Positions 40,820 to 64,000 of a stretch of DNA of 64,000 nucleotides are shown here, in pieces. Source of the DNA: an uncultured Bacteroidales bacterium (GTDB taxonomy: Bacteria > Bacteroidota > Bacteroidia > Bacteroidales > Bacteroidaceae). Both the position numbers and the translations under genes were made by a program. Location of the stretch: the NCBI GenBank assembly GCA_902776985.1, contig CACYSD010000001.1, forward strand, positions 106,758 through 170,757. The letters are read 5' to 3'. Below the pieces are notes generated by a model. The model was not told where the DNA came from, ran no database searches, and saw nothing but the letters and a program-made list of their open reading frames with translations. Within the stretch, counting starts at the first letter, position 1. Each line of letters opens with the position of its first letter.

Positions 40820-40866
40820 AATAATAATAATCAACTCATTATTAACTAATAAAAAAAACCAATAAT

Positions 40867-41532: not shown

Positions 41533-41540
41533 GGAGAAAT

Positions 41541-41752: not shown

Positions 41753-41764
41753 AAAAATACAACA

Positions 41765-43275: not shown

Positions 43276-43301
43276 TACCTTTTCAAAACAAAAAGAAAAC
43301 A

Positions 43302-45063: not shown

Positions 45064-45091
45064 AAGACCCTCCCGTCAGGGAGGGAGTAAG
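45063..45091. repeat. GC-rich hairpin element, truncated copy 6
   Basis: gaagaccctcccgtcagggagggagtaag has the same ends (GAAGACCC...GGGAGTAG) but lacks the central G-tracts. Confidence 0.45.
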
Positions 45092-45094
45092 TGA

Positions 45095-45232
45095 AGTGAT
45101 AGGAAAACCTAGAAAAGCCTAGGAGAGCCTAGGAAAGCCTAGAAAAGCCTAGGAAAACCTAGGAGAACCTAGGAGAGCCTAGGAAAACCTAGGAGAACCT
45201 AGGCAGACCTAGGCACTCCTAGAAGAACTTAA
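45095..45232 (+). repeat. Phased 10-bp tandem repeat array 3 (NNCCTAGGNN, about 13 units), upstream of rhaD
   Basis: aaaacctaga aaagcctagg agagcctagg aaagcctaga ... agacctaggc actcctagaa. Confidence 0.7.
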
Positions 45233-45260
45233 AAACTCAAAAACTAAAAAACTAAATAAA

Positions 45261-46082: not shown

Positions 46083-48547
46083 AGTGAAATTTCCTGACCC
46101 TGAAGAAGTGGTGAGGAGAAATAGATTCGAATAGTTCCCGTGCGGACATCAGTGTCCCAAGCGGGAACTGTTCCGTTATTACGGGCATTACGCATCATAG
46201 CGCCTTTAGCTATGTAGGCTACAAGACGACCGTTCTTCACACGGCAGCGAGGCTGGTTCTTGTCACGAGTATCACGGATATCGCCGTTCTCCATGCCAAG
46301 CAGACGGGCATTGCCCTGTACACGGCAGGAAATCTCGTTGTCGGCAAGAGTCACGACTTTACCATCTTCATCAACAACCTCGACAAGAATCTGCACCACA
46401 TCACCATTGCCAGCAAGCTGTTTCTTGTCGGCAGTGACACGAAGTGCGTAAGGGCGTCCGGTTGTGGCTATCTCTGCCGAAGCACCGTCAACCTCGCAAC
46501 GAAGTGTTCCCGGAGCGTATTCCACATCCCAATAAAGTATGTTGGTAGCCTCATCACGCTGTGGGTCCCCTCCGATTGGAGAACCGTTAAGAAGTAGGTG
46601 TGCCGACTGTGCATTGGTGTAGCACACCACACGTACACGCTGACCTATCTCGTAGTTCCAAACCGCAGGAGCATACTGACTCACGTAGCCGCCAGCGTTA
46701 TTGCGACGTCCGCGCTGCTGCATCTGTGGATAGGTTCCGATATAGCACATCGGAGTCTCACTCCAGAGCGACGCACGGTAATAACCGTTCGGTTTAATCT
46801 GACCGGCGAGGTCAAGCAGACCGGCTTCACTACCTCGTGCCGGCCACGGTCCGCTTTCTCCAAGATAGTCAATACCTGTCCACAGGAACTGACCGAAGAT
46901 ATGTTCATTGTCAGTTACGGCACGCCATGCAGCCAAATCGTGACGGTTCTCGCTTCCGTAAATCACACGTTTGGGATATTTAGCATGGTCTTCTCCGTAA
47001 CGGCTTTCGGTGTAGTTATATCCAACCACATCGACTGCTTCAGGATAAGCGGTCTCGTTCGACATCACCACACCAGCCAAGGCTCCGGTAACAGCACGGG
47101 AGGAGTCGATGCCACGTACGATTTTGGACAAACGCTTGGCAATCTCTCCGATTCGTTCTGCACGAGGAGCATCTGACTTGAATCCGCCATAGATGGGCTG
47201 CGTCATACTCTTGTCGCCATTGAGCACAGGATGGCTGTATGGGTCGTTTGGATAATCCACCTCATTGCCTATGCTCCACATGAAGATTGAAGGATGGCAG
47301 CGATCACGACGAACCATATCAGCTACGTCACGGTCAATCCATTCCTCGAAATAGTCGAACGTTCCTTCAAAACCAGGCGTTCCCTGATTCCATCCCTTCA
47401 ACCACTTGCGTTTGGGAAATTCCCATTCGTCGCTGGCCTCATCCATAACAAGGAGTCCGAGAGAGTCACACAACTCATAAACCATAGGTGCATGTGGATT
47501 ATGACTCATGCGAATGGCATTTACGCCTAAAGATTTCAGGGTCTGCAGACGGGTACGCCACACAGCAGCAGGAACAGCTGTACCCAGCACGCCTGCATCA
47601 TCGTGCAAGCAAACACCCTTAACCTTCATCCATTTGCCGTTGAGCGCAAAACCACGGTCGGGTGAGAAGGTCAGAGTACGGATGCCAAGAGAAACAACCG
47701 AACGGTCGATGTCGTTACCGTCTTTCTGCAAACGGGTAACAATTTTATAAAGGTAGGGATTGGCGAGTGTCCACAACTGTGTATTCTTAATCTGTACAGT
47801 TGCAGTCTGTCGCTGCTCAGAAGGAATCTTCACCTTAGCCGTTCCGACAACTTTTCCTGACGCATCGTAAATCTCAACGATTGCTGCATAGTCAGCACCT
47901 CCAGCTGTGGCCTGCACATCCACCTCAACAGTGGCATTGCTGCCAGAAAGTTTCTTGACTCTCCATGCACTACCCCACTGAGCCAGATGGACTTCGGGTG
48001 CACTGATAATCCACACATTGCGATTGATGCCGCTGCCTGTGTACCATCGGGAATCGTTCTGACGAGAGTGATCCACACGGACTGCCAGCACATTGTCGCC
48101 TGAGCGGTTGAGATGAGGAGTCAGTTCATAGAGGAACGAGGCAAATCCGCTGGGACGATAACCCAGCTTCACTCCGTTCAGATAAACTGTAGAACGGTTA
48201 TAGACACCTTCAAAATAGATATAGATTCTTTTTCCTGTTGCCAAAGCAAGACTGTCGGGAGAGAAATGGCAACGATACAACCCTATTCCACCAGGAAGAT
48301 AACCCTGACACGAACCGCGGTCAGGCGACATAGGTAGCGAAACACTCCAGTCATGAGGAATGTGAACACGTTGCCAGCGGCTGTCGTTGTAATCGGTATT
48401 CACTGCGGCAGAGTCATCTGCAAGTTGGAACAGCCAACCTTCATTAAGCCGACTACTTTCGCCAAAAGAAACAGGACTCTGCTGAGCCAACATAGTAAAA
48501 GAAGGCATCACGAATGCCATCAACAGGGAAAGGAAAAGCTTTTTCAT
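46079..48547 (-). CDS. Glycoside hydrolase family 2 (beta-galactosidase/beta-glucuronidase-like)
   Basis: Signal peptide; N-terminal sugar-binding domain (RWQRVHIPHDWSV), Ig-like domain and TIM-barrel with WSIGNE catalytic region. 822 aa. Confidence 0.8.
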   Translation of the reverse strand: MKKLFLSLLMAFVMPSFTMLAQQSPVSFGESSRLNEGWLFQLADDSAAVNTDYNDSRWQRVHIPHDWSVSLPMSPDRGSCQGYLPGGIGLYRCHFSPDSLALATGKRIYIYFEGVYNRSTVYLNGVKLGYRPSGFASFLYELTPHLNRSGDNVLAVRVDHSRQNDSRWYTGSGINRNVWIISAPEVHLAQWGSAWRVKKLSGSNATVEVDVQATAGGADYAAIVEIYDASGKVVGTAKVKIPSEQRQTATVQIKNTQLWTLANPYLYKIVTRLQKDGNDIDRSVVSLGIRTLTFSPDRGFALNGKWMKVKGVCLHDDAGVLGTAVPAAVWRTRLQTLKSLGVNAIRMSHNPHAPMVYELCDSLGLLVMDEASDEWEFPKRKWLKGWNQGTPGFEGTFDYFEEWIDRDVADMVRRDRCHPSIFMWSIGNEVDYPNDPYSHPVLNGDKSMTQPIYGGFKSDAPRAERIGEIAKRLSKIVRGIDSSRAVTGALAGVVMSNETAYPEAVDVVGYNYTESRYGEDHAKYPKRVIYGSENRHDLAAWRAVTDNEHIFGQFLWTGIDYLGESGPWPARGSEAGLLDLAGQIKPNGYYRASLWSETPMCYIGTYPQMQQRGRRNNAGGYVSQYAPAVWNYEIGQRVRVVCYTNAQSAHLLLNGSPIGGDPQRDEATNILYWDVEYAPGTLRCEVDGASAEIATTGRPYALRVTADKKQLAGNGDVVQILVEVVDEDGKVVTLADNEISCRVQGNARLLGMENGDIRDTRDKNQPRCRVKNGRLVAYIAKGAMMRNARNNGTVPAWDTDVRTGTIRIYFSSPLLQGQEISL

Positions 48548-48636: not shown

Positions 48637-49830
48637 TTAAATCTGGCTGATTGCCTTAGCCACAGTATAAGCAGTAGTCCAGGCAGCCTGGAAGTTAAAG
48701 CCGCCAGTTACGCCGTCAATGTCAAGTACCTCTCCGGCAAAGAATAGTCGTGGAGAAGTAAGTCCTTGAGACTGCGGAAACACGCGGCTTTCCAAAGTGT
48801 TTGGATTGACAGACTTCAGTAAAACTCCACCACAGGTAACAAACTCATCCTTGTTGACTCCACGCCCACTAATATCATAAACATCATTTGTCAACACATT
48901 AATAAGTCTGTTCTGCAGTTTGCCTGTAACATCCAGCCAACGCAGGGAGTCAAGATTCACCTTGCGAAGCAGGTATTCCCACAAGCGGGAAGAAAGGGAG
49001 AAAAGTGGAATAGTCGCAACTTGTTTGTTGAAATTACTATTTGCGAAAACCTGAAGTTCGCTGCGCACCTGTTCCTCGTTCTTCATAGTCCAATTAACCG
49101 TCAGCTGCGCTTTGTACTGACTATCGGCAAGATGACGCGCAGCATAGGATGACAGACGCAAGACTGCAGGTCCGCTCAGTCCCCAATGAGTGACGAGCAG
49201 AGGTCCTGATGCTTCAAATTTCGTTCCCGAAAGTCGCACATTGACATTTTGCACTGTTCCCATAAGACTACGGAGTAGCGCATCGACGATGTTGAAAGTA
49301 AACAAAGACGGACAGGGATTCTCTATCTCGTGACCGAGGTCTGCAAGCCACTGCAAACCCTCACGGCGAGAACTTCCGCCAGTTGTAACAACGACGAAGT
49401 CAAAATCCTGCAGTTCCGCAAGCGATGACACAGCACTGTTGGTCTTGACTTCAATGCCAAGACGCTGTGCTTCGTTTAAGAAAAGACTGATGATGGTCTG
49501 GCTGTCCTGACTTGCAGGGAATACACATTCGTCCTCTTGGGTGACGAGTTTCACCCCCCTGCTTTCAAACCACTGATAAGCATCCACATGGCTGAACTCA
49601 TGCATCAAGCGTTTCATGAGTCTATGCCCACGCGGATAGACCTGTTTCAAATCAGTAACGGAGGCAAAGGAGTTTGTGCAGTTGCAGCGTCCGCCACCAC
49701 TCACTTTCACTTTCTGCAGTACGCGCTGGCTTCGCTCGAAGATACATACCTGCAACTGCGGACACATCTCCTTCAGATTGATGGCACAGAAGAAACCTGC
49801 AGCACCTCCACCTATAATCGCAGTCTTCAT
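48637..49830 (-). CDS. HI0933/BaiN-family NAD(P)/FAD-dependent flavoprotein
   Basis: MKTAIIGGGAAGFFCAI Rossmann motif and C-terminal ...GGFNFQAAWTTAYTVAKAI are typical of the HI0933 family. 397 aa. Confidence 0.8.
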   Translation of the reverse strand: MKTAIIGGGAAGFFCAINLKEMCPQLQVCIFERSQRVLQKVKVSGGGRCNCTNSFASVTDLKQVYPRGHRLMKRLMHEFSHVDAYQWFESRGVKLVTQEDECVFPASQDSQTIISLFLNEAQRLGIEVKTNSAVSSLAELQDFDFVVVTTGGSSRREGLQWLADLGHEIENPCPSLFTFNIVDALLRSLMGTVQNVNVRLSGTKFEASGPLLVTHWGLSGPAVLRLSSYAARHLADSQYKAQLTVNWTMKNEEQVRSELQVFANSNFNKQVATIPLFSLSSRLWEYLLRKVNLDSLRWLDVTGKLQNRLINVLTNDVYDISGRGVNKDEFVTCGGVLLKSVNPNTLESRVFPQSQGLTSPRLFFAGEVLDIDGVTGGFNFQAAWTTAYTVAKAISQI

Positions 49831-49839
49831 CGGCTGTGG

Positions 49840-52800
49840 TTATTCAGATTTGCCTATAGTGACATTAGTCTGGCCTGTGACATTTGCCTTATTTCCTCCA
49901 CCATACACATTACCAAGGATATTAACACCCTTGACCGTAATCTTGGTTTCCGTGTCGGCACCTGTAACATATTGTATCTTTTCCTCTGTTCCGATATTCA
50001 CATAGGTGTCACCTACAACCTCTGCCTCATTTCCACCACCAAATACGTTATTGATGGAACCGATCGCACCTTGCGTATGTGGCGGATACTTAAGTTCACG
50101 GGTTGTAACAACACCTGGAGTCAGTTCCTCGGAAATGGTGATGGTACCTTCTGTAGCGATATTTGCCTGAGAGTGGTTGGTCTTTCCACCAACAACCTCA
50201 TTGATGTTCACAACAGGACTACCAATCATTACCGCAGTTTCACCATAACCACCGCCATAGATGTCTCCGATGCTGGTGAACGACTTGACATTAACATGTG
50301 GAGAATCATAAGGTGAGCTCAACGCTCCAGCGTCGGTTGACTTCAGAGGCAGCCACTGTATCTTACCATCAACGTCAAGAATCAAATCACCATTACCGTC
50401 TTTCTTCTCGGTATAGCCGTATATTGAGTACGCAGCTCGGTTACCGCCACCAAACAACTCACCGATGATAATAGGACGGCATCCGGTTTCCTCGATATTC
50501 ACGACGATGGAACCGCCAATACGTCCGCCTCTATTGTTTCCGCCAAACACCTGACCATATCGACCATTAGTGATATTCAGAGTAGCACCACCTACGACGT
50601 CGGCATTCTCAGCACCTCCATAGACAATATCCAAACCAGGAATACAATCCATCGTCATTACAGTCTCTGCATCCATGTCCGCACTCTTTCCTCCACCGTA
50701 AGCTTCACCAACGTTGAAACAGCAGTAATCATCATCAGCTTCATCCTTTTCACTAAGTATAACCATAGCGGTCTGTCGTAAATTACCCTTTGTGTTAGAA
50801 CCGCCATAAACCGCATGTATCAGACCTCCATGCACAACTACCTTTACCTGACCTGAGCCATAAATATAGGATTTGAAAGGATCTTCGGCACGTTTATCCT
50901 TAGTGTCATAGCTGTCTTCAACAGCGGAATAGTCCTTATATCCGATATTGGCACCAGGATTTTCCTTCAGGACTCCACTAACGACAATAGAATCCTTACC
51001 ATTTCCTCCACCAAAGACCTCGCCGATCTCAAAAGTACCGTTAATTTCAACAAATGTGCCTGGAGTCGATGCGGCATTACCTCCGCCATAAACCTGTGCA
51101 ATACTTGTTCGGTCGCAACCGTCAATAATCACATGAGTATAGGCAGCGTCAACCAAAGCCTTGTTTGTAGCATAGTCAAGGAATGCGTTTGTTGGTTCAT
51201 AGGCAGCCAAGTTACCACCGCCATAGACTGCAGCAACATCGTATTCGCCTAAGACCTTTGCTGTAGCAGGACCGTTAACAGGATTGGTGATGCGTGTAGC
51301 ACCAGCCTTCTGAGTCTTAAATACATGAACGGTTACTGTTCCCTTTGGAGTTCCGCTGACGTTATTACATCCGAAGATACGACTTACTACACAGCCACAA
51401 GCGTCATCGGCAACATTCTCGTTAAGAGATACGTTAGTATTACCCTCAACATCAGCAGCAAGTCCACCGCCATAGGCATCATGAATGACCGTACCACCTG
51501 TCAGATTAACGTATGTGTCCTTCCAAACAATACCGGCCTCGCCGCCACCATAGACAGAACCATACATCGTACCATTAATAATATACAGAGTTGTGTTACC
51601 TAACACTCGACCAGCAACAGCATTTCCTTCAATACCAAGTCCACCACCATAGACATTACCACCAGTGTCAGCAGTACCTATCTGGCAGCTGCTGCCTTGA
51701 ATTGTCACTTGAGTATTATCCTGTACGAAACCACTCTCACTACCGCCATAGACAGAGCCTTTGACAAAGGCACTTCCATCGATGTCAACAAAGGTCTTTG
51801 TCACTAACGCCATGGTCTCGACAAACTTCATATAGTCTTCTTCGCTTGCGAATGTTTCCCAGACACTTTCGTTGTTATTATTAAAGGTCATACGTTTGTT
51901 CGTACCGTCATAATGAGGGACAATTCCCTTGCCGGCGCCAAAGACATGTCCGATGTTATCAGGACCTATTTTTGCAACGTCCTTAACAGTGACTCTACAT
52001 ATACCTAAGCCATCGTTTGTCAAAGCATACGGCATACCAATCTTTATACCGGCAGCAACCAATTCAGGATATTTGGCAAGAGTATCGGCATTGGCAACTT
52101 TGTATTTCCCGACAGAAGCAATCTCACCACCGCCATACACGTTTTGTCCAATCTTAGTCCTACCCTGAATCAAGACAGCTGTGTTACCACGAACCAAAGC
52201 AGAATAACCATGAGTCTCCACACCTGCACCTGCTCCGAACACGCTACATCTGATATCAGGTGCCACTCCTTCACCGGTTGCTCCAGCAACTCCAATGGTA
52301 ACCTCTGTATTTCCTTCCACACGGGCAATCTCTCCACCACCATACACAGAACCGTAAACAGTTCCGTTGCTGATGTTGACATTCGTGCTGTCCACCATGG
52401 CTTTCTCGCACTGGTATGAGTTAGCAAGACCCTTACTTGCTCCAAACACATTACCCTTACCAGTAACACCTTCAGAACCGATCGTACCACCTGTGATATT
52501 TACGTCGCAAATTCCGGTTTTAGCATCATGCAGAGTATGCCATGTAAAATCCCTGCCGTCTGCAGAAACGGTATATGTACCCACATAGCCATAAGCACCA
52601 CCGCCATACACAGAACCATACATGGTGCCACCACCAATATTAAGTGATGTATTACCGCTTACACGTCCGGCAGCTGCATTGTCCTGAAGTCCAAGTCCAC
52701 CACCGAATACGTTACCGCCTGCATCGGTTGTACCAATCTGGCAACTGCCTTGGATATTCACATAAGAATTAAACTGCACAAAACCACTTTCACTACCGCC

Positions 52801-55800
52801 ATAGACAGAGCCTTTGACTTTGGCATTTCCGTTGACGGTAAGATGGGTATCAGTGGCAAGAGCCAGGGTCTGAACATAAATAAGTAATGCATTTTCATAA
52901 CCCTCACCATAACTGCCAGGTTCACCATTGTTATTGTAATACTCCATTGAGTTGTCAGGCTTCATACGTCCAGGATTGGTTATTGCTCCTGGGTCAACGC
53001 CCTTACCTGCTCCAAAGACACTGCCTAAAATCTCGGCATTGTCCTTGACGGTGACTGTACATATACCCAAATTTGTATTAGCCAGAGTGAACGGCATTCC
53101 AACCTCCAGGTTTGGATGTTCTTCCTTGTTAGCCAAAGTGACAAGACTGTGTTTGCCCACAGATGCAATATCACCACCACCATACACGCTGCCTCCTACC
53201 TTGGTTAAGCCCTGAACAGAAACAACAGGATTGCCACGCACCAGTGCCGAGTATCCATGTGTACTTAAACCAGCGCCTGCACCATATACATCACCTTTGA
53301 TATCAGGTGCATATCCTCCTCCGGATGCCCCTTCAACACCTAAAGTAACTGCTGTATTTCCTTCCACACGTGCAATCTCCCCACCTCCAAACACAGAGCC
53401 GTAAACTGTTCCGTCACTGATGTTGACAATAGTTGTGTTAACCATGGCTTTTCTACACTCGAAGGTGTTAGACGCACCCTTGCCGGCACCGAACACATTT
53501 CCAAATCCGTTGCCTTCAGCACCAATAGTACCACCTGTAATAGTAACATTGCATACGCCGCTACCTCCAATATATGTATTAGAGCCATCTACATTCGTAG
53601 TATATGTGCCCACGTCACCTGCTTCACCGCCGCCATACACATTTCCCTTGACAACTGCAGCGTCACTTATGGTTACATTCGTCGTTTTCGCCAAAGCGGC
53701 ATCGGTTTGCGTAGAAATGGAATCACCTCGGGCTGCGCCGAACACACTTCCGTTGCGGATACCATCAACACCAATAGTTCCACCACTAATAGAAATAGAA
53801 GTAACACCACCATTAGTTATAGTAATTGCACCGGTATTGTCCTTTGTCATTGTTCCCACCGAACCCATAGCACCGGCACCATAGAGGTTATGTGCCACAA
53901 GACCTCCTGTGACGTTTACGGATGCATTACCTAATACAATACCAGCCAATGGATTGTAGCTGTCAAATATGCCGTCATTGTCTGAATCATATTTATCAGT
54001 ACCGCAACCACCGCCATACACATTTCCACGATAAGGATAATTTGCACCAGTGTATTCTACACCACCTGATGAAATTGGAGAACCACTCGTTATACCTATA
54101 GTTCCACTATGGATATCTACCAATGTATTTTCGTAAGTGTGGCCATTCTCTCCACTACCATAGACAGAGCCTTTTATCAGTGGAGATGTCAACGTAGTTC
54201 CCTGTCCCTCTGTACCAATCACCACATGAGCATCATGAACCCATGCCAATCGGTCGTGAATTTCTCCAGGAGCACCTACGTCACCACGAGACGAGCCGAA
54301 GACCATTCCATTTTCAGCTCCATTGGTGCCAATGATACCACCAGTAATAGTAACTAAAGCTGAACCACCAGACGTATATGATGTTATATTACCGGCATTG
54401 TCATACACATAAGTTCCGACAGAACCGTATGCACCACCACCATATACATTATGCAAAATCTTCGGTGAGATAGTATTTCCGCCAACAATAGTATCTTGGA
54501 TAGTCACATTTGTATTACCCTTTACCAATCCAGATTTCACGTCGGTGACTTTTCCCTTTCCTCCTCCATAGACATTGCCATACAATGCTCCACCAAGACC
54601 AGTTGTACCGATGGTACCACCTCCTTTAACAATCACCTCGGTATTTCCATCTACATTAGACTCTTCACCACCGCCATACACACTGCCACCAACAGTTGTT
54701 GAACCTTTAATATTCAGAACTGTTTTTCCTACATAACCGAGGGAAGTAAGGTCTTCATCTGTATATACAAAGTTCCCTAATCCCGAACTTTCCATTCCAG
54801 ACTCTCCGTTTTTCAGCACACTTTTATCAACTTGTTTCCACGTATAGGTCTCAAGGGTATTAATCTCACCCATATCAAACATGCCTATGTTGTTATTGAT
54901 GCCAGGATCCTGAGTGAACGCCGGTGTGTTTCGCACATAGACCGGGGGAAGCGATGCTGAATAACCTCCTCCATATACACTACCTTCCACCTTACAACTA
55001 TAAAGTGTGGAAGTGGCTGTTCCATTTACCTTGCCAAGATAGCCACCACCGTAGAAGTTGCCCGTTATATTACATCCGTTTAGGTTTGAAGTCACGCCGT
55101 TCGTAGTGGCAAGTGAGAATGAAGCAAACTTAACATAGAAACGTCCACCCGTTTTACCGGATGACCAATAGAAGAAGTCATAGTCGAAGTCAGTAGCCAC
55201 GCCCTTGCCCTTTTTACCATACTGGCCATTGTTTCCTGGAGACTTCGTTGTTGCACCGTCGAAATATTTTCCGCGATCATTGGCATAATCACCCTGTTTG
55301 TCTTTTGGGTTCCAATTCGCTATATCATAGTACTTCACCCTATTCAAAGAGGTACCACCATAGCCAGCTCCGCAGTATGTGCCAAACGTACAGTTGTTAG
55401 CATTGGTGATAACAGTTTTTCCCGCACTCATATCACCAAACTTCGGTCCTCCGCAGAACAATGTAACATGACTGTTCGTGATGTCCGTTTGTATGCTTCC
55501 CGTTATAGGCTTATTGGCATTTATTCCGCCACCAAAGAAGTTGGTTATGTCAGCCCAGTCTATCTGCCAACGTACGTTTCCGTCTATCTGCTCCAGCGAT
55601 GCACCTGCCATCTCGCCAAAACGTCCTCCGCTCACGTAGCACTCGGCTGGGTCATTTTGGTTCGCAACCACAGTAGGCTGATATGTTCCAGAAAGGTAGA
55701 ATTCGTCATAGTCACCTCCAGTAACGGAAATCGGAATATGTTTTGTTGATTGGGTACCATCACTATGAGTGCCATTGCCAAACTTAGCATACCAAGCATT

Positions 55801-57834
55801 ACCTCCCACATGTATATACTTTGTCGCTGTTGGCTTGCTGACTTTCGTAGAAACAAACTGCTTATACGACCCACCAAGAAGTATCAATGGAGCTGCCGAT
55901 TTGTCACCATTATCATACTCAAACTGTTCAAAATGGACCAAACATGTATTGGTTATCTCAAACCATCCTTTTATTTTGAATATTGACACATTACGAAAAG
56001 TCGATGCATTTTTAGGTATTTGTGCCTCCGCTATACCCACGATATTCAAGAAATCATAACGGATAGGAGAAATTTTTTGGCGATCATTATGACCGAATAT
56101 ATAGCTATAGTCGGGTTCGTTGTCATGGTTCAAGTCTATAGACATCAAAGTATATGGAATATCAGAAAACGTTGGATTATCCGCCTGATGAACGTTGCCA
56201 ACAAGCACCACAGCCTGGTCATACACGGTTTTGCTCGAGTTATCAAAACCAGTAAGAGCATTACTTATGGTGGTATAGACTTTTTGATTATTATTCCCGT
56301 CATTGTATATATCTATATTCGTATTGTTGTTATATTGTGTTCCAAACAGAGAAAAACTCTGTTTCCCATAACTATTGTTATACACAACGTCATACGTATC
56401 ATCAGACACATAGTTGGCTATTGCCCAATAAGGCTCAATAGTGATAGCCGTTACACCCTCTGGGACATCCCAATATGCGCCCTGCGAGAACACACGATAA
56501 CTACCATTAGTACCATATAAGTCCTTATTGGTACATTTACGGTCGGCAAAGTTATAACCGCCCCATTCGTCAGCCTCATTATAAGTACCTGATGTGCCAC
56601 CTGTGATACTAGTTATCTTCCATCCCGTAACTACACGACTTCCTGTATAGTTGCCAGTTCCCACGTCATTATAATAAGGTAGCTGCACCTTATCGTAGTT
56701 AAAATTGAAGTGGTCAAAGTCCTTGTCGGTACGCTGAAGTGTCAAGGAGGTGGTTGTGATGTCGGCACCATCCGGCCAACTCTGACCTCCATCGGTTTTA
56801 CTTGTGCTGATAGTTACAGTAAGCGTCTTATTAAGTTTTCCACCCTTGTTTCTTCCAACGGTAGCACTGTCAGGAGCATTTTTTATATCGGGGTTGATAA
56901 TAGATGGATAGTAGCCTTGAGCTTTTAAAATAGGATATGGATTAGGTTCATTGATGGTTCTGTCAGCCGTTTCAAGTACCCATTTTGCCATATCATTTGG
57001 ATTGACAGTAGTAGTTGCAGTAGAAGCATATTTGGCGGCCAGTTTGTTATTACTGTTGAGCAACAGACGATAGCGTTCAAATCGATTGATGAACTTCTCT
57101 TCCATTGCCAACGCCCTATTGTATTTCGTAATTAGTTTATTTTTACTATAAGGTGACTCATAACGATAGTAGTTATAATTGTTCATGCCACCTGCAACAT
57201 TATTGATCTCCACACCACCATAAATTGGTGATATTGTTCCGCCTGAAGAAATATCACCATAGAACATACAGTTCATCACCATAGTGGTCAAAGAAGATTG
57301 TGTTGAAGTCACTCTGTTATATCCTACAATACCTGCTTTTTCACTGCCAGCTGTAATATTAGCATAGCTGTAGCAGTTAATGACACGAGCTGTACCATCG
57401 AGGAGTCCGATGAGTCCACCTGTATAACCTGTACCACCTACAGAACCGCTAAGGATTCCGACATTATAGACTCTTGCTGAGCCATTGGCTGTACCAGCTA
57501 TCGCACCCACATTATCACCACTGGATATATTCACATCCTCCAGCACAAGATTCTTTACCGTACCGGTTAGTGTGGTAAAGAGAGGAGCACCAAGACCTGT
57601 AATCTTATATGGCATATGAGTATCAGGATCGAAATTTGCCTCAAGTGTACCATTGAAAGTAGTAACACCTGGAGTGCCACCACTTATATCCTGAGTAATG
57701 ATATAATGACCGTCAGCATCAGTAATCTGGCTCAACGAAGTGATGTTGGTTTGGCCCCACACTTGAGTGAGTCCAAATGTCAGCATCAGGGACAGAATAA
57801 ACAGAGTCTTGGAAGTATAGTGAAGTTGTTTCAT
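49840..57834 (-). CDS. Giant (2,664 aa) secreted repetitive protein: N-terminal GLUG-motif domains followed by hundreds of beta-helix-like V/Y-GGG repeats; no T9SS CTD at its C-terminus
   Basis: Signal peptide MKQLHYTSKTLFILSLMLTFGLTQVWG. GLUG-type motifs (GTGYTGGLIGLLDG, GDNVGAIAGTANG). More than 60 copies of GSVYGGG / NVYGGG / GNVFGAG separated by 15-25 residues. Internal ~330-aa tandem duplication. Confidence 0.6.
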   Translation of the reverse strand: MKQLHYTSKTLFILSLMLTFGLTQVWGQTNITSLSQITDADGHYIITQDISGGTPGVTTFNGTLEANFDPDTHMPYKITGLGAPLFTTLTGTVKNLVLEDVNISSGDNVGAIAGTANGSARVYNVGILSGSVGGTGYTGGLIGLLDGTARVINCYSYANITAGSEKAGIVGYNRVTSTQSSLTTMVMNCMFYGDISSGGTISPIYGGVEINNVAGGMNNYNYYRYESPYSKNKLITKYNRALAMEEKFINRFERYRLLLNSNNKLAAKYASTATTTVNPNDMAKWVLETADRTINEPNPYPILKAQGYYPSIINPDIKNAPDSATVGRNKGGKLNKTLTVTISTSKTDGGQSWPDGADITTTSLTLQRTDKDFDHFNFNYDKVQLPYYNDVGTGNYTGSRVVTGWKITSITGGTSGTYNEADEWGGYNFADRKCTNKDLYGTNGSYRVFSQGAYWDVPEGVTAITIEPYWAIANYVSDDTYDVVYNNSYGKQSFSLFGTQYNNNTNIDIYNDGNNNQKVYTTISNALTGFDNSSKTVYDQAVVLVGNVHQADNPTFSDIPYTLMSIDLNHDNEPDYSYIFGHNDRQKISPIRYDFLNIVGIAEAQIPKNASTFRNVSIFKIKGWFEITNTCLVHFEQFEYDNGDKSAAPLILLGGSYKQFVSTKVSKPTATKYIHVGGNAWYAKFGNGTHSDGTQSTKHIPISVTGGDYDEFYLSGTYQPTVVANQNDPAECYVSGGRFGEMAGASLEQIDGNVRWQIDWADITNFFGGGINANKPITGSIQTDITNSHVTLFCGGPKFGDMSAGKTVITNANNCTFGTYCGAGYGGTSLNRVKYYDIANWNPKDKQGDYANDRGKYFDGATTKSPGNNGQYGKKGKGVATDFDYDFFYWSSGKTGGRFYVKFASFSLATTNGVTSNLNGCNITGNFYGGGYLGKVNGTATSTLYSCKVEGSVYGGGYSASLPPVYVRNTPAFTQDPGINNNIGMFDMGEINTLETYTWKQVDKSVLKNGESGMESSGLGNFVYTDEDLTSLGYVGKTVLNIKGSTTVGGSVYGGGEESNVDGNTEVIVKGGGTIGTTGLGGALYGNVYGGGKGKVTDVKSGLVKGNTNVTIQDTIVGGNTISPKILHNVYGGGAYGSVGTYVYDNAGNITSYTSGGSALVTITGGIIGTNGAENGMVFGSSRGDVGAPGEIHDRLAWVHDAHVVIGTEGQGTTLTSPLIKGSVYGSGENGHTYENTLVDIHSGTIGITSGSPISSGGVEYTGANYPYRGNVYGGGCGTDKYDSDNDGIFDSYNPLAGIVLGNASVNVTGGLVAHNLYGAGAMGSVGTMTKDNTGAITITNGGVTSISISGGTIGVDGIRNGSVFGAARGDSISTQTDAALAKTTNVTISDAAVVKGNVYGGGEAGDVGTYTTNVDGSNTYIGGSGVCNVTITGGTIGAEGNGFGNVFGAGKGASNTFECRKAMVNTTIVNISDGTVYGSVFGGGEIARVEGNTAVTLGVEGASGGGYAPDIKGDVYGAGAGLSTHGYSALVRGNPVVSVQGLTKVGGSVYGGGDIASVGKHSLVTLANKEEHPNLEVGMPFTLANTNLGICTVTVKDNAEILGSVFGAGKGVDPGAITNPGRMKPDNSMEYYNNNGEPGSYGEGYENALLIYVQTLALATDTHLTVNGNAKVKGSVYGGSESGFVQFNSYVNIQGSCQIGTTDAGGNVFGGGLGLQDNAAAGRVSGNTSLNIGGGTMYGSVYGGGAYGYVGTYTVSADGRDFTWHTLHDAKTGICDVNITGGTIGSEGVTGKGNVFGASKGLANSYQCEKAMVDSTNVNISNGTVYGSVYGGGEIARVEGNTEVTIGVAGATGEGVAPDIRCSVFGAGAGVETHGYSALVRGNTAVLIQGRTKIGQNVYGGGEIASVGKYKVANADTLAKYPELVAAGIKIGMPYALTNDGLGICRVTVKDVAKIGPDNIGHVFGAGKGIVPHYDGTNKRMTFNNNNESVWETFASEEDYMKFVETMALVTKTFVDIDGSAFVKGSVYGGSESGFVQDNTQVTIQGSSCQIGTADTGGNVYGGGLGIEGNAVAGRVLGNTTLYIINGTMYGSVYGGGEAGIVWKDTYVNLTGGTVIHDAYGGGLAADVEGNTNVSLNENVADDACGCVVSRIFGCNNVSGTPKGTVTVHVFKTQKAGATRITNPVNGPATAKVLGEYDVAAVYGGGNLAAYEPTNAFLDYATNKALVDAAYTHVIIDGCDRTSIAQVYGGGNAASTPGTFVEINGTFEIGEVFGGGNGKDSIVVSGVLKENPGANIGYKDYSAVEDSYDTKDKRAEDPFKSYIYGSGQVKVVVHGGLIHAVYGGSNTKGNLRQTAMVILSEKDEADDDYCCFNVGEAYGGGKSADMDAETVMTMDCIPGLDIVYGGAENADVVGGATLNITNGRYGQVFGGNNRGGRIGGSIVVNIEETGCRPIIIGELFGGGNRAAYSIYGYTEKKDGNGDLILDVDGKIQWLPLKSTDAGALSSPYDSPHVNVKSFTSIGDIYGGGYGETAVMIGSPVVNINEVVGGKTNHSQANIATEGTITISEELTPGVVTTRELKYPPHTQGAIGSINNVFGGGNEAEVVGDTYVNIGTEEKIQYVTGADTETKITVKGVNILGNVYGGGNKANVTGQTNVTIGKSE

Positions 57835-57842
57835 TTTTATAT

Positions 57843-60800
57843 TTAATGAATAATCAATTTCTTGTTGTTAACGAGATAAACTCCCTTTGCAGATACAGGA
57901 ACTTCGAATGTTTCGTCGGTATGTATCTTGAATGTGGCAACGCGTGCTCCGTCGGCAGTGTAAATGCGTATAGGCATTGTCCTGCGAAGCGTAGACTTAA
58001 CCACTATCTTGTCATTCTCAGAGTAAACAATGAGTGAACCGTCATCGATGTCCTCGCCTGTAGGTTCGAGATCTATCTCACCGCTTGACTTATTAAGGAT
58101 AATCTTACGTGCCTTAGTTGAAGACGGAGCCTTAATGTATGGTCTGAAAGCAGTTAACGAAGCTGCACCGGCAGTTGTATTCTCGAAACTGCCACCATCG
58201 TTGTCGAGGGCAAAGACACTCACACTCGCTGCCTCCGGATTGTTCAGATATGTAGGAACGAATGTATATCCGCCAGAAGAAACGCCTTCCATCTCGTTGT
58301 CGCTGACACCGATAGAAGTTCCTTCCACTGAAGCGAAGGTAATATACTGCTTACCTGGGCTGGCAATGGTGATTGGGAAGTTGACAAGATTGTCAGGAGT
58401 CCACGTTCCGCTCAGGTCAAACTCGAAGAAGGTCTTTCCTGGGAAGCCCACGATATACGGTTTGCCTGCATCGTAGTAAGGATAGTTGTCTACCGGATAA
58501 CGGGCAGCAAGATAATCCGTACTATAATAGATCTTCTTGAATTCGTCTGTATTTCTGTCAAGGAATTCATACTGGCTATAATAGTAATCGTAGAGGAATG
58601 TATTAGTGTAATTCTTCGTATGGTTACTTGGAGCCAGAGGGTCGAAGTCGGCAGTAAAGACTCCATCAACAGGTTGGTTGTTTTCCATCTTCTGCTGAAC
58701 ATTACCCTTGAATTCACGGAGCCAGTACTCGTGTCCCTTCGTGCTGTTCTTATAGAAGTGAGTCAGTTCACCCTTCTTATCCGTAGTTACCAATTCAACT
58801 TCGAACGGCAGGCTGACACTTTCCCAACCAGAGTTCATATTGACGAAGTGATCAGGATAACGCTGATACCACATGCGGTTGCCACTGCCGAAATTATATG
58901 CGATAGGAGCATTGAAGTCCTGAAGGTCTACGAGGAAGTGGTCTCTAACTGCTGTATATACACCACCCGACTGCTGTACCCAGTGACCACGGATGTGGGA
59001 TGGGTCCATAAAGTCAACTGTTCGATAAGTGGTATTCGTCTCAGTATATGTGCCATCGGCGAGATATGCGCTAACCACATTGGCAGTCTTCTGCGAAGCG
59101 TTTGGAGTCTGTCCTGTTCCTGTGCCGCCTGGAACACCAGTATAGACAAGCAGGTTCTTCGTCAGATCAACATTAACGAAGGCTGAGAGTCCGCCGTCAT
59201 CAAGCAATGGTGGATAGAAGCGTGCCGGCAATTTGCCTGATGCAGCCACATTACCCATCTTATAGCCTGCTGCCAAGTCTCCATTTCCTCCTGTGAAGTC
59301 AATGGCAGTCATATCCTTGTATGCAATCATTGATTCGTCGCCGTACATCGTCTGGGCAAATACAGCATAAGGATTGAAGTATGCCACACCTGCATTTCCG
59401 GAACGGTAGTAAGCCGGAGCACGGAATACACGGTTTCCTGCGTCGGTTGTCACGAGATAGTTTCCACTACGGTTGATTACAGTAGGATTATCCTGATGAG
59501 TACGTCCGTTGACATGATTGTAATTCAATGCCTGACCGAAGAAGAAATAGTCGTCTGGCCAGATAGGATGATAAGCTTCATGCTCTTCATCATATCTCTC
59601 ATCGAGATCACTAGGTACTTCACCCCCTGCATACTGGTAGTCACCATCTGCAAAGCGGCTCTCTACATAGCTGCCCAAATAGTTGTCGGCATTGTCGTAG
59701 AAGAGATATGGGCCTGTAGCATTCGCATAGTAACCAGTATGGAGCGTAAGCGTCTTGTTCGCACCAACGGTATAGTATTGATACGGATTGGTGTTAACAG
59801 AAGAGTTGTTGTCGCAATAACGCTTAAACAGATAGAATCCGTTCAGGTCATAAGTAACTTCTCCGTTTCGGAATGCGTGGAGAGGTTTCTCTATTGATCC
59901 GCTGCCCGACAGATACTGATTCTCCTGAGGATAATAGCAGTTCACCAGATGAACTGTACGGTTTGCCGTATTGATAGGATTCTCAAAGAGAGCTTTCTTA
60001 TTCTTCTCAGTGTTGTCCGAAGTGTTAATCCAGCAGTTCTCGAGATAACCGCTTCCTTCATCAGCTATTCCGGCAGAAGTGTATGAACCGGTAACACCAA
60101 GGTTATATACCTCACCGCAAAGGTGTCCGAAGAGTGAGTGGTCAAGACCGGTAATGGTATGTCCGTCACCATGCAGCGTTCCTTCGAAGCACTTGCCGGT
60201 ATCTTCCAAAGAGTTGTCATAGCCGATAGGTGTCCAACCAGTAACTGAGCCGCCATCCACGCTGTATGCTTTCGGACTGACATCACTGCGGAGGATGAAT
60301 TCGAGATTACGTGCGGAATGAACATGAGTATCAAGATTAGCATGACCTTCAAGTGCAGTTCCTGCTTCCGGAGTGGTAGAGAGTACACTCAGGTCGAAGA
60401 AATCCTTAAGCAAGTCAAGTTCACTCTTAGTAGGATCGGACTCACAAGTACGGTTGTCAATATAAATCTTGCTCTCGCGCTTCACACCTGGATTATCCAC
60501 ATACATGTGGTGTGCCTTATCCTTCATCACGGCATCAAGGTCATGATAGTTGGCAACTCTCAATGGCACGTGGTTAGAATAAGTTTCACCGAGGTATGTC
60601 TTTGCGTAGTAAGCCACATAGTAGCCGTCGTTGTACCAATAAAGCTTATCAACTCTTGGTATATAGTCAATACCGTTGGTATGGTTCTCTGCATCGCTGA
60701 TCTTCTCGAATATCTTCCATCCACCACCGGTTACTTCGTATGCACCAGGGATAACGTTTGGTTCACGGAGACCGACATAGTCACCAGGAATAACCATTCG

Positions 60801-63800
60801 TGGAGACTTGATATTCTCAACTGTAGGCACACCGCTCTTGAACTGCAGGTGGAAGTTCACCACGTGGCGTTCGCTGATAGGAGTAATGTGCATTGCGGTT
60901 GCGTCACTCTCCTCATAATTGTATTCATAAATTACAGTTATGATCTTCTCCTTTGAGAGGTCGAATATATCGGAATTGCGAGCCACATACAGTGTACCTG
61001 TTCCATTCGGTGAAATACCGTGGATAAGGAAGTTCATTTGTTTGTTGGTAAGGTTGGAGTAATTGGATGCTTCAATCACGAATCCAAGTGGTACAGTCTG
61101 TCCGTTGGTATATGATGCAGAACCTGTGCTACCTTCAACAGCTGCCTTCGTCACAGCCACACCTTCACCATGCTCACCCACAACATAGCTTTCGCGACAA
61201 TAATAATATGTCTTGCCAACCTGTTCTGAAGTAAAGGTGAGGACGCTGATATTACTCTGTTCTGATGTACCCAGACTATTATAAGCATTCGCTGTAATAG
61301 TAGTTCCGGCTGCATAAGGAGAGTTACCAATTTCGAATGCTGTATGGACTACATACACATTTCCTGCAGCTTGCACGCTGATAGGTGAATAGAAACGCTT
61401 CTCGTTAGGAATTGACTCGAATACAGTGCGGCTAACCTCTGTGCCGTTGGTAATAGTCTTACCACCATAGTTCAGAGTCTCTGTTCCCTGATATGTAGCT
61501 GAATAGTCAACATACTGAGAAAGTGAATAACCTACTCCGTTTGCCTCGACTTGTGCTGCAGTAGTGAAGTCGGCGCCGTCATACTGATACTTACGTCCTT
61601 CAGCATAAACAACGTTTCCTGCTTCATCCCTACTATATAGCGGATCTATCAACAGGTCGAATGCGTCGTAGTTGAAATCAAATCTCTCTCTGTCGGTCTT
61701 AGACATAGATGACCATACCTCCAGACCACGATAGTTCTTACCTACCTCATAGTAGTTTCCTCCATACAAACCTGCTGTTGTACAGATATAAGCCGGAACT
61801 ATACTGTTGTCAATCTCGTCTGCCAGCAATGGGCTTTCGGTTTGATACATACTAATGTATTCAGCCTTTTGCTCGGCAGTCATCTTTGTATTGACGTAGA
61901 TATACTCTGTAGCTTCGAGCTGGATGGTTCCGAGACAGATATATGCCGGTGAAGCACTACCTGCAGGAAGTGTAGGAACCAATGAAGCAGGAATTGCAGT
62001 ACCTACATTGAGGTGGTGAACGTCACCGCCATCATTGTATTCCACCTGTTCGGTTACAATATATGCAGGCTCGAACTCTGCCTGACCGTCAGGAACGTCA
62101 GAGCTATGACTTGTAATCATAGACTGATAAGTGTCGTAGGTTTCCTTGGAAATGACATTGTCGATATTATATCCACGCTGTCCAAGGATACCGCCTTCGG
62201 TTCCCTTCAGATGATATGTAGGTCCGCTTTCGTAGCCTGTTTCATTATTATAATCTTCTGGACTCAATCGTTCATGATTAGCGCTTTCCACCTTGGTGTA
62301 CCATGTATCCCATGGTCTCGGGTTACTCATGCTGTATGTAAGCATATAACCTGTGTCGTGACCTACATTGTTGGATGAGCGGAAAATATAATCGAATGCA
62401 ACATCCTTCTGCAGCTCAGTATGGTAGGCAGAAGGTTCGAGAGGCGACTCTGTACCGTTCAGACGTTTCTTAGGTGCAGATGCCTTAAGAGTCTCATAAT
62501 CTTCTGGCAACAACACTGAACCCTCTGGATAATCAGTATCGCCCACCTTGCAGGCAGCAATCGTAACATAGGTATCTTCTACGAACAATGCACGCTCAGC
62601 CTTGCTTAAGAGATACCAATCCCAATAGCTGATAGGATCGTTCTTGTAGTATGACACGTCATTAATCACAATCTTCTTTCCATCTTCGATAGGCACATCA
62701 GGTTGTGAGAAATAAGCATAACGGTTTGGCATCACGTTGAGCAACTTCATGTGTGCATTTGAAGATGCTGTGATTGTCAACGGAATGTTAATACGTTCGC
62801 TATAAGCGTTTGGTGAACCTGTATATGCTGAGATATAACGGTCATAGACATATACCGAACCCTTGATGAACCAATAGTGTGCAGGAACAGCACCATCACC
62901 TGAATATCGTCCACTGATATTGTAGCAGTCGTCGATAATGGTCTGTGTTCCATGAACGAAGTTACCAGAGGTCTGCCACTCATAAAGATCGGTTGTTGAA
63001 TAGGTATAGTTCTTACGTGTGATGGCATCTGCATTCAATTCAGTCAGAGTATCGTGGTTTTTCGGTGTATAAGTTTGCCGTCCATGCTCATTTTTCGCAT
63101 ATACGAATCCACCACCAATACCTGTCTGCACATTGATAAGGTCCAGCTCAATGACGCCGGTCACATAACCCCAGTCCTTCTCGTTAAGCTCTGTTCCAGT
63201 ACTCTTCTCTGAAGTCAGTTCCAGATACACACCGGAAGCAAGAGCCACCTTGTTGAAACTTGTACCGTTATTGCGCTTACGTTCCTTAACGTGCTTCTTC
63301 TTCCAGTTGTAGTATGTCAGGTCATCACCCACGAGATTACCGTGTTCGTCTTTTTCTGGGCCATAGGTTTCAGTATCACTGTTATCGGTAATACGAGTGT
63401 CCTCGTTTGGTCTGAAGTGAACATCACTGGTCAGCGCACCAAGATAGTTGACGACATTATAGATACCGAAATAGTTACCATGGATTGCCTTGCTAACATC
63501 CAGATAGTCCTCTGGTTCCTCTGAATTGGGATCTGCTCCTGGTTTGTGTTCAATATCCGCAGGAATAACAGAACGTTTCTGGTTGAGCGAAACCTCGCGT
63601 ACACGGTTAATGGTATAGTTCGTATAGTCCACAACCTCAGGCACACGGTCCTGGGCACCCTTCATCACCATTCGGCTACCGAAGACCCCACAGAAGTCTG
63701 AACGCTGAATAGTGTTCATCAGACGTCCTGCATAGATTGAGCAGACACCGTTCTCTTCCCAATAGATAGGATTAGGTACTTTCTCTCCCTTATCATTGGT

Positions 63801-64000
63801 TATAATAATAGGCACTCCGTTGTCTGTAACACCTTCAAACAAAGCAATAAGGTCGTCGGCTGTCAATGTAGATGCCTTGGCACCATTTGCGTCAGTGTGA
63901 TATTGTGTACCATCGGTATCCACACACTCCTTGACACACTTGTATTTAAGCTCGTAGTAAGCTCTCTCACGTTGAGGAAGAGTACGATATATATCAATCG
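57843..64000 (-). CDS. Giant (>2,050 aa, N-terminus outside window) surface protein ending in a T9SS C-terminal sorting domain
   Basis: Reading frame is open to the window edge; ORF-track start 63923 is a GTG inside the frame. The C-terminal ~80 aa (IRIYTADGARVATFKIHTDETFEVPVSAKGVYLVNNKKLIIH) have the T9SS CTD pattern. Stop is 8 bp before the next giant gene. Confidence 0.55.
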   Translation of the reverse strand, partial: IDIYRTLPQRERAYYELKYKCVKECVDTDGTQYHTDANGAKASTLTADDLIALFEGVTDNGVPIIITNDKGEKVPNPIYWEENGVCSIYAGRLMNTIQRSDFCGVFGSRMVMKGAQDRVPEVVDYTNYTINRVREVSLNQKRSVIPADIEHKPGADPNSEEPEDYLDVSKAIHGNYFGIYNVVNYLGALTSDVHFRPNEDTRITDNSDTETYGPEKDEHGNLVGDDLTYYNWKKKHVKERKRNNGTSFNKVALASGVYLELTSEKSTGTELNEKDWGYVTGVIELDLINVQTGIGGGFVYAKNEHGRQTYTPKNHDTLTELNADAITRKNYTYSTTDLYEWQTSGNFVHGTQTIIDDCYNISGRYSGDGAVPAHYWFIKGSVYVYDRYISAYTGSPNAYSERINIPLTITASSNAHMKLLNVMPNRYAYFSQPDVPIEDGKKIVINDVSYYKNDPISYWDWYLLSKAERALFVEDTYVTIAACKVGDTDYPEGSVLLPEDYETLKASAPKKRLNGTESPLEPSAYHTELQKDVAFDYIFRSSNNVGHDTGYMLTYSMSNPRPWDTWYTKVESANHERLSPEDYNNETGYESGPTYHLKGTEGGILGQRGYNIDNVISKETYDTYQSMITSHSSDVPDGQAEFEPAYIVTEQVEYNDGGDVHHLNVGTAIPASLVPTLPAGSASPAYICLGTIQLEATEYIYVNTKMTAEQKAEYISMYQTESPLLADEIDNSIVPAYICTTAGLYGGNYYEVGKNYRGLEVWSSMSKTDRERFDFNYDAFDLLIDPLYSRDEAGNVVYAEGRKYQYDGADFTTAAQVEANGVGYSLSQYVDYSATYQGTETLNYGGKTITNGTEVSRTVFESIPNEKRFYSPISVQAAGNVYVVHTAFEIGNSPYAAGTTITANAYNSLGTSEQSNISVLTFTSEQVGKTYYYCRESYVVGEHGEGVAVTKAAVEGSTGSASYTNGQTVPLGFVIEASNYSNLTNKQMNFLIHGISPNGTGTLYVARNSDIFDLSKEKIITVIYEYNYEESDATAMHITPISERHVVNFHLQFKSGVPTVENIKSPRMVIPGDYVGLREPNVIPGAYEVTGGGWKIFEKISDAENHTNGIDYIPRVDKLYWYNDGYYVAYYAKTYLGETYSNHVPLRVANYHDLDAVMKDKAHHMYVDNPGVKRESKIYIDNRTCESDPTKSELDLLKDFFDLSVLSTTPEAGTALEGHANLDTHVHSARNLEFILRSDVSPKAYSVDGGSVTGWTPIGYDNSLEDTGKCFEGTLHGDGHTITGLDHSLFGHLCGEVYNLGVTGSYTSAGIADEGSGYLENCWINTSDNTEKNKKALFENPINTANRTVHLVNCYYPQENQYLSGSGSIEKPLHAFRNGEVTYDLNGFYLFKRYCDNNSSVNTNPYQYYTVGANKTLTLHTGYYANATGPYLFYDNADNYLGSYVESRFADGDYQYAGGEVPSDLDERYDEEHEAYHPIWPDDYFFFGQALNYNHVNGRTHQDNPTVINRSGNYLVTTDAGNRVFRAPAYYRSGNAGVAYFNPYAVFAQTMYGDESMIAYKDMTAIDFTGGNGDLAAGYKMGNVAASGKLPARFYPPLLDDGGLSAFVNVDLTKNLLVYTGVPGGTGTGQTPNASQKTANVVSAYLADGTYTETNTTYRTVDFMDPSHIRGHWVQQSGGVYTAVRDHFLVDLQDFNAPIAYNFGSGNRMWYQRYPDHFVNMNSGWESVSLPFEVELVTTDKKGELTHFYKNSTKGHEYWLREFKGNVQQKMENNQPVDGVFTADFDPLAPSNHTKNYTNTFLYDYYYSQYEFLDRNTDEFKKIYYSTDYLAARYPVDNYPYYDAGKPYIVGFPGKTFFEFDLSGTWTPDNLVNFPITIASPGKQYITFASVEGTSIGVSDNEMEGVSSGGYTFVPTYLNNPEAASVSVFALDNDGGSFENTTAGAASLTAFRPYIKAPSSTKARKIILNKSSGEIDLEPTGEDIDDGSLIVYSENDKIVVKSTLRRTMPIRIYTADGARVATFKIHTDETFEVPVSAKGVYLVNNKKLIIH

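Follow-up and report, generated by a model that had tools for sequence, protein, structure and literature searches.

A conserved cassette of two giant genes

The 64,000-nucleotide stretch of Bacteroidales DNA analysed here (contig CACYSD010000001.1; hereafter the window) has at its far end two adjacent open reading frames (ORFs), in tandem on the minus strand, which form a conserved cassette: the gene for a giant protein, termed A and very likely a type IX secretion system (T9SS) cargo, is followed by that for a giant protein, termed B, with an IgA1-protease-type head and a predicted beta-solenoid body, but without the C-terminal sorting domain (CTD) that A carries. An initial annotation, made from the letters alone, had described a giant gene pair 8 bp apart, and both ORFs are confirmed. 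Its combined length of more than 4,700 amino acids holds within the window, where the pair encodes 4,715; A itself, however, is really ~3,870 residues long rather than ~2,050, with ~1,800 residues of rungs lying outside the window. The layout, and the two features of A that concern its C-terminal half, are as follows.

57843 to 64000, minus strand: 3′ part of gene A, very likely for a giant T9SS cargo; final 2,051 amino acids plus stop, comprising the non-repeat region and the CTD
57846 to 58079, minus strand: C-terminal ~78 amino acids of A (…GSLIVYSENDKIVVKSTLRRTMPIRIYTADGARVATFKIHTDETFEVPVSAKGVYLVNNKKLIIH), very likely a long type-A T9SS sorting domain; TIGR04183, PF18962 and motifs by eye
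60093 to 60197, minus strand: GLUG-domain-like start within A (FEGTLHGDGHTITGLDHSLFG…); 35 residues only, found with the B-head profile (i-E 4e-4, one-sequence search), weak and not relied on
57835 to 57842, minus strand: A–B spacer of 8 bp (atataaaa), read from the sequence
49840 to 57834, minus strand: gene B, 2,664 amino acids from an ATG start; Sec signal peptide, predicted beta-helix protein, no T9SS CTD

The stop codon of A occupies 57843–57845 and its reading frame is open up to the window edge. A public rumen-metagenome contig, L005 (ERZ28613015 scaffold_1451), covers the same locus, encodes an identical B protein and reaches further upstream; just past window position 64000 it has a 10-N scaffold gap within A (L005 positions 670–679), across which ORFs of 770 and 3,096 residues are called. 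The length of ~3,870 residues follows from these two ORFs and fits orthologues of 3,400–3,900 residues, which are 36–53% identical to A across the entire window part. Because of the gap, database entries of the A protein are fragments; the exact protein was absent from the top matches of the homologue search.

In full-length orthologues a signal peptide is followed at once by a glycine-rich rung (…AQA↓QITIGGNVYGGGNAGD.GG.T.V.V), the cleavage site AQA↓Q leaving Gln first. The rung part of A, of ~1,800 residues and predicted beta-helix type, lies nearly all beyond the window, which holds the non-repeat part of ~1,900 residues; the window part has no Pfam match and its non-repeat region has no relative among PDB sequences. 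The initial annotation regarded the T9SS CTD as clear. The window copy in fact stays just below the TIGR04183 cutoff of 23 bits, at 20.9–21.3. With the same model, however, 32 of 41 A-orthologue C termini match at E ≤ 0.01 (best E 2e-8), and eight of the 41 match PF18962. Long and short CTD classes have been described for T9SS cargo of Prevotella intermedia (PMC11969387), and the G, GxY and basic motifs of Prevotella CTDs (PMC11969387) can be discerned by eye in A. The end of A is, on these grounds, very likely a genuine long type-A sorting domain, though diverged in the window copy.

Searches with B returned more than 2,204 matches; the counts out of 120 given below refer to the listed homologues. 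The following features were delimited in B.

57754 to 57834, minus strand: signal peptide, residues 1–27, read from the sequence; predicted cleavage VWG↓Q, giving an N-terminal Gln
54835 to 57753, minus strand: head module, residues 28–1000; 38–81% identical in 117 more distant homologues
57136 to 57729, minus strand: GLUG beta-helix domain, residues ~36–233, from PF05342, profile comparison with PDB and Foldseek; no catalytic motif
49843 to 55539, minus strand: glycine-rich rung region, residues 766–2664, with 40 φ-[YF]-G-G-G motifs
52723 to 53562, minus strand: internal duplication, copy 1, residues ~1425–1704; 57% identity to copy 2
51667 to 52518, minus strand: internal duplication, copy 2, residues ~1773–2056; 57% identity to copy 1
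49843 to 51642, minus strand: predicted C-terminal beta-solenoid module, residues 2065–2664; colinear to the extreme C terminus in 117 of 120 homologues
49855 to 49926, minus strand: terminal rung, residues 2637–2660 (…GNVYGGGNKANVTGQTNVTIGK), then SE and stop; the C-terminal end across the family

As the initial annotation had it, B begins with a signal peptide: by inspection, without a predictor, its N terminus (MKQLHYTSKTLFILSLMLTFGLTQVWG↓QTNIT) looks like a signal peptide of the Sec/SPase I kind, and Gln after the cleavage site is the Bacteroidetes 'Q-rule'. With no Cys among its first 40 residues, B lacks a lipobox cysteine and is not a lipoprotein. The N-terminal GLUG domain was likewise recovered, PF05342 (Peptidase_M26_N, GLUG region) matching residues 58–126 with 38.4 bits (cutoff 27.7). 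A profile of the head, compared with PDB sequences, finds IgA1 protease (E 3.9e-13, query 9–206 to chain 120–395), and Foldseek gives local matches to 7uvl, 6xja and 6xjb; the AlphaFold2 model of the head is mostly beta and of moderate confidence (pLDDT 68, pTM 0.63). B has neither a Peptidase_M26_C match nor an HExxH motif, and the lone HExxH of A (HEAYH) lacks conservation among 36 orthologues, so a protease function was rejected. As judged from its sequence, B shares the N-terminal domain of IgA1 protease, not its function, and stands outside the M26 family. About 20 of the 120 homologues also bear Fn3_assoc, CHB_HEX_C_1 or RicinB lectin domains.

The ~1,800 residues of repeats proposed for B are there, as 40 rung motifs of the form [VILFMA][YFW][GA][GAS][GAS] between residues 766 and 2643, spaced 18–161 residues apart (mostly 25–72); a tandem-repeat search of the region at the DNA level found none. 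Within the rungs a segment of ~290 residues is duplicated (51667–53562, minus strand), and a 90%-identical B allele of 2,312–2,314 residues in other samples (P0002, P0003) suggests that rod length varies between strains. Across the family the rung region is variable, unlike the head and the C-terminal module that flank it. The C-terminal module is modelled confidently as a beta-solenoid with a seemingly uncapped end, and the modelled repeat region is a beta-helix/beta-solenoid at the fold level, in agreement with the parallel beta-helix that had been expected; its fold comparisons list RsaA, pectin-lyase-like enzymes, Ag43, Hap, pertactin and HxuA.

No curated family covers A or B beyond the PF05342 fragment, the source annotation being 'hypothetical protein'. 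Literature on GLUG domains, T9SS piggyback and giant Prevotella beta-helix adhesins yielded no description of either family. Nor does A or B match a characterised adhesin in Pfam, NCBIfam, Foldseek or PDB-sequence comparisons, as the initial annotation had also found.

The C terminus of the B family

Nearly all B homologues finish with …G.DIRGNVYGGGN.AEVTGNTNV.IGK followed by 0–25 residues. A profile of the C-terminal module collects 2,085 clusters (50% identity), the longest protein having 7,954 residues; the 146 best representatives of these clusters (P0241–P0386) were used for counts of ends and architectures. The terminal rung motif closes 117 of the 120 homologues and also 116 of the 146 distant representatives, which come from independent assemblies, and the non-repeat region and CTD of A are absent from all 146.

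The domain check that the initial annotation had called for was run, and B has no T9SS CTD by long, short or type-B models. Pfam and NCBIfam scans of B found none, and 0 of 34 diverse B-family C termini match any T9SS model at E ≤ 1, with the A orthologues as positive control for the long type-A domain; for the type-B domain (TIGR04131) the absence of an NCBIfam match at E ≤ 1 in 34 B-family C termini is a result without positive control. Since TIGR04183 found only one of eight short Prevotella CTDs, a custom hidden Markov model (HMM) was built from the short CTDs of related A–B loci. All six short CTDs held out from its construction are detected (E ≤ 5e-19), and none of the 266 ends from the B family reaches E ≤ 1e-3.

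The lack of a sorting domain in these 266 relatives argues that B is not truncated. That B lost a CTD by truncation or frameshift, or was mis-assembled, might be suspected because it stops mid-repeat, 9 bp ahead of an unrelated gene; however, the shared ending of homologues and distant representatives, and the identical protein on the independent public contig, leave this explanation with almost no probability and effectively refute it. A truncated or pseudogene origin was rejected on the same ground, the ending being the same throughout the family, and by sequence the CTD-less end of B is a family trait, not damage. The B family can thus be described as very large, unannotated, giant Sec-exported rods (~2,000 clusters at 50% identity, up to ~8,000 residues) in which no sorting domain was found, while to our knowledge every established T9SS cargo has a C-terminal one.

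Other recognised routes left no trace either. Pfam and NCBIfam scans of A and B show no C-terminal beta-barrel translocator and no two-partner secretion (TPS) domain, B ending on a rung, and no Omp85-type partner was found among the four minus-strand window genes scanned. Nor does B fit the RTX adhesins of type I secretion, which have no Sec signal but RTX nonapeptide repeats and a C-terminal T1SS signal: it has a Sec-type signal peptide and no HemolysinCabind match.

In 12 of the 266 members (P0256, P0261, P0274, P0281, P0291, P0296, P0312, P0321, P0324, P0325, P0337 and P0339) an extra ~50–60 residues, rich in P, Q and T, follow the terminal rung. They finish with a conserved tail, N[AV][AS]TE[SA]…R[ST][VI]…R, often after (S/G)(P/A)AP(R/I)R. 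Window B lacks this extension, which has the look of a small C-terminal tag of sorting type, not described before.

A signal peptide without a recognised outer-membrane export signal is also what would be seen if B were periplasmic or enclosed in the lumen of outer-membrane vesicles, and such a location would account for the missing CTD. It is quite improbable: there is no evident use in the periplasm for a rod of 2,664 to ~8,000 residues that bears an adhesin-type head, lectin, Fn3_assoc or CHB_HEX domains are present in some relatives, and the gene is tightly linked to that of A, a presumably surface-anchored partner.

Matching terminal rungs and a possible two-piece fibre

Among the dozens of rungs in each family, the last rung of B and the first rung of A are reciprocal best matches. 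An HMM of the last rung of the B family gives its highest score to the first rung of A in all nine full-length orthologues, each of which yields ~20–29 rung matches. In the other direction, an HMM of the first rung of A ranks the last of ~34 rungs top in 80 of the 120 homologues of B, and in a further 31 that rung comes second; of the 31 matches in window B itself, the strongest (28.9 bits) is again the last rung. Control HMMs of internal rungs behave differently, that from B placing the last rung top in only 6 of 120 and that from A placing the first rung of A top in 0 of 17, so a simple effect of the most canonical rung is disfavoured. The polarity of the free ends, N-terminal in A and C-terminal in B, is compatible with stacking of the two proteins.

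The arrangement of the genes was followed in a scan of species-representative genomes, which gave 290 stretches, of which 78 loci were kept. All 78 belong to Prevotella, Prevotellaceae or Bacteroidales of the rumen or gut and come from metagenome-assembled genomes (MAGs) together with two isolates; the cultured Prevotella lacticifex JCM 34664 and Prevotella sp. tc2-28 carry the cassette. Since the relatives are rumen Prevotella/Prevotellaceae MAGs and these isolates, the assignment of the DNA to Prevotella fits. The search for the same pair in other Prevotella, which the initial annotation had suggested, was thus productive: an A orthologue stands upstream of B, on the same strand, at 45 of the 78 loci, many of them from rumen Prevotellaceae. 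The gap between the genes is −4 to 74 bp in 23 of the 45; the others have one to six genes between A and B, coding for mid-size proteins with short CTDs or resembling mobile elements. Where B has at least 1,600 residues, A lies upstream in 36 of 39 informative loci.

It may be that the two proteins form a two-piece fibre, with A anchored to the surface by its sorting domain, B stacked on the N-terminal end of A and the head of B at the tip; of the readings considered we tentatively prefer this one, at rather less than even confidence. Type-A cargo of the T9SS is generally anchored to the cell surface via its C terminus (PMC8545088, PMC11969387). A would accordingly be exported by the T9SS and fixed in that manner, so that the N-terminal end of its rod would face outward. 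The uncapped C-terminal rung of B would then stack head-to-tail on the uncapped N-terminal rung of A, lengthening the rod and bringing the head of B to the distal tip, where adhesion or the binding of glycans could be its function. B might reach the surface through the T9SS while bound to A, or dock on A after leaving by another route. End-to-end stacking is suggested by the polarity, the matching terminal rungs, the uncapped end of B and the likeness to solenoids that stack by their ends; the presence, in related loci, of first-rung-to-last-rung pieces beside B-type genes is also counted for it. To judge by context, the probable role of the structure is attachment to plant fibre or other rumen glycans, given the rumen habitat and the lectin, Fn3_assoc and CHB_HEX domains of the ~20 homologues mentioned above.

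Several points weigh against this proposal. The sequences in the rank tests are related, so that their counts overstate independence, and the likeness of the terminal rungs could reflect constraints at helix ends or common ancestry instead of contact. BLASTP detects no overall similarity between A and B, and no B+A fusion occurs among the 146 top representatives. The 5′ end of A lies outside both the window and L005, its N terminus being deduced from the full-length orthologues. We know of no precedent for a CTD-less protein hitchhiking through the T9SS. At ~26 loci, short B-type genes (~1,100 residues, with head and ending as in B) have no A within 10 kb, and the B family far outnumbers the A family (more than 2,204 versus 314 matches, ~7 times larger), so not every B-type protein can depend on an adjacent A.

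The last two points bear most directly on the main rival, a serious one: B-type proteins may carry an export or anchoring signal of their own that has escaped recognition (e.g. the 600-residue C-terminal module or the terminal rung) and leave by the T9SS or another outer-membrane route, the adjacency of A and B being mere co-regulation of two related adhesin genes. The short genes without A, often in tandem, and the size of the B family, with its 2,085 clusters, are what independent export would predict; moreover, nothing else in the family keeps its position as consistently as the C-terminal module and the end, and the conserved short tail of 12 members, set behind a P/Q-rich linker, resembles a sorting tag. 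Against it, the end of B is unlike any known T9SS CTD, B has no autotransporter barrel and no lipobox, and both the specific likeness between the first rung of A and the last rung of B and the rule that a long B follows A are left unexplained. We consider such a route doubtful on balance, although a real possibility. The two-component surface structure that the initial annotation had proposed therefore fares unevenly, gaining from the reciprocal-best terminal rungs and losing from the short B-type genes that often stand without A, and its alternative, in which B uses a different route, stays alive.

Tandem arrays of two or three short B-type paralogues (~1,100 residues) occur at loci L011, L018, L023, L024, L027, L050, L057, L066 and L082. 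Behind the short genes of L023, L024, L027, L050 and L057 lies a giant ORF, opening with a signal peptide and a rung, which leaves the locus before its C terminus. The A-type N-terminal region was sought in the loci without A and gave no matches; these rung-starting giants were rejected as A candidates, being of a different lineage.

A further architecture, which may be termed rung-to-rung, has a signal peptide, an immediate rung and the family terminal rung at its C terminus, with neither head nor CTD, in proteins of 877 to ~7,000 residues; it accounts for 69 of the 146 top representatives. Genes of this type (877–1,406 residues) lie beside B-type genes at L066 (13337–15970), L082 (15775–18441) and L076 (13608–17828).

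The two-piece reading could be widened to include these proteins, such that Prevotellaceae would assemble modular, multi-protein beta-solenoid fibres from separately encoded giants joined at uncapped ends, a generalisation that we regard as rather unlikely. In such a fibre the base would be an A-type piece, running from a first rung to the T9SS CTD and alone in having a secretion and anchor signal; optional extension pieces would have a signal peptide and run from first rung to last rung; and a B-type piece, from head to last rung, would form the tip. Tip and extension pieces could hitchhike via the T9SS as a pre-assembled thin rod, or nucleate on the base outside the cell.

Alternatively, B-type and rung-to-rung proteins could stack on one another into filaments like those of curli or bactofilins, with A as nucleator or alternative base at most. 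The abundance of headless, CTD-less rung-to-rung proteins of up to ~7,000 residues, and their position next to B-type genes at the three loci above, would suit self-polymerisation; by contrast, the N-terminal head of B is globular, so B could do no more than end a stack, the rung-to-rung pieces have no known export route, and the idea rests on likeness at the fold level. It is accordingly judged improbable.

Neighbouring genes and comparison with known systems

On the strand of B, the gene for an aminoacetone-oxidase-family FAD enzyme (48637–49830, minus strand) begins 9 bp past the B stop and is followed by a gene for a GH2 beta-galactosidase (46079–48547, minus strand). The short interval means that the transcription unit perhaps extends beyond B, and both genes may be co-transcribed with it; since neither is conserved in this position in related loci, they were left out of the feature. 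A fucose/rhamnose-type sugar utilisation cluster, from gene calls on L005, adjoins the cassette on the opposite strand (~39192–46082, plus strand) and comprises an FGGY kinase, a fucose isomerase-like protein, an MFS transporter, a class II aldolase and a 23S rRNA IVP family gene. Scans for sigma-70 promoters and terminators gave sites no commoner than in shuffled sequence, the scan being ill-suited to Bacteroidota promoters.

The junction between A and B appears to be an insertion hot spot. Mid-size proteins of 450–1,500 residues are encoded there at L001 (7514–9997), L006, L009, L020, L028, L035, L036, L048, L052, L065 and L071; their C termini carry the short CTD of Prevotella T9SS cargo (WYTLDGRRL..KP..KGIYI.NG.K..IK), and some have Fn3_assoc or CHB_HEX_C_1 domains. 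Such short-CTD neighbours in related loci imply that the organisms have a T9SS. ORFs resembling mobile elements occupy the junction at L033, L035, L036, L044 and L045 (~380–430 residues) and at L008, L014, L039, L062 and L076 (~300–350 residues). One group of insert ORFs starts with M..K.PT.H.M.RR.A.HDY..PG.YH.T and is transposase-like by eye; another ends in …HDRFLI.DD..Y.FGASFKDLGK.LFA and is RhuM-like by eye.

If A and B do join, then either a CTD-less protein is secreted through the T9SS on a partner, or extracellular fibres are assembled by solenoid stacking; the tip adhesin of abundant rumen Prevotella would also have been identified, with a bearing on attachment to plant fibre. Were the modular reading true, it would represent a new mode of surface-fibre assembly and the first CTD-independent T9SS passengers.

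The closest parallels include SprB and RemA of Flavobacterium johnsoniae, giant, repeat-rich, rod-like filamentous adhesins that the T9SS secretes by way of a C-terminal sorting domain and whose genes share small operons with accessory genes. SprB has a type-B CTD, requires the PorP-like partner SprF and has a role in gliding. A resembles both in being a giant, probably rod-like Bacteroidota surface protein with a T9SS sorting domain; however, its CTD is very likely of the long type-A, and homology to SprB was not seen. B lacks a CTD altogether, and the window has no gene of PorP/SprF type either between A and B or next to them. Compared with the T9SS cargo of P. intermedia (PMC11969387), the end of A matches the 'long' class and that of the mid-size A–B inserts of relatives the 'short' class (WYTLDGRRL…KGIYI…K..IK), whereas the end of B fits neither. 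A thus very likely belongs among the giant, adhesin-like T9SS cargo, while a CTD-less partner with a matching helix end may, to judge from sequence, be new, as may the assembly principle.

The head of B is related to ZmpA, the IgA1 protease of S. pneumoniae (6xja, 6xjb, 7uvl; PF05342), with which residues ~36–233 are homologous at ~20% identity over ~230 aligned columns. Unlike ZmpA, B lacks the M26 catalytic domain as well as HExxH and LPXTG, and its host is Gram-negative; the shared domain is uninformative on protease activity. The beta-helical passenger and TpsA adhesins of type V secretion to which the query was compared (TibA, Ag43, Hap, pertactin, HMW1, EtpA and HxuA) share only 6–14% sequence identity with it, and no C-terminal beta-barrel translocator, N-terminal TPS domain or Omp85 partner gene was seen here. 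The stacking proposed for A and B has its analogy in the curli proteins CsgA and CsgB and in bactofilin, solenoids that stack by their ends, to which there is no sequence homology, nor are there csg-like genes here; curli subunits are of ~130 residues and exported unfolded through CsgG, unlike the giant A and B.

A last comparison is with CBM89, a 14-turn, non-catalytic beta-helix within a GH10 enzyme of a capybara-gut Bacteroidaceae, which binds xylan (PDB 7jvi; PMC8810776). It is the top Foldseek match of the C-terminal module of B, a non-significant one (E 0.4, probability 0.06) that is taken as a fold analogy only. CBM89 is, nevertheless, a gut Bacteroidales beta-helix that binds a plant polysaccharide.

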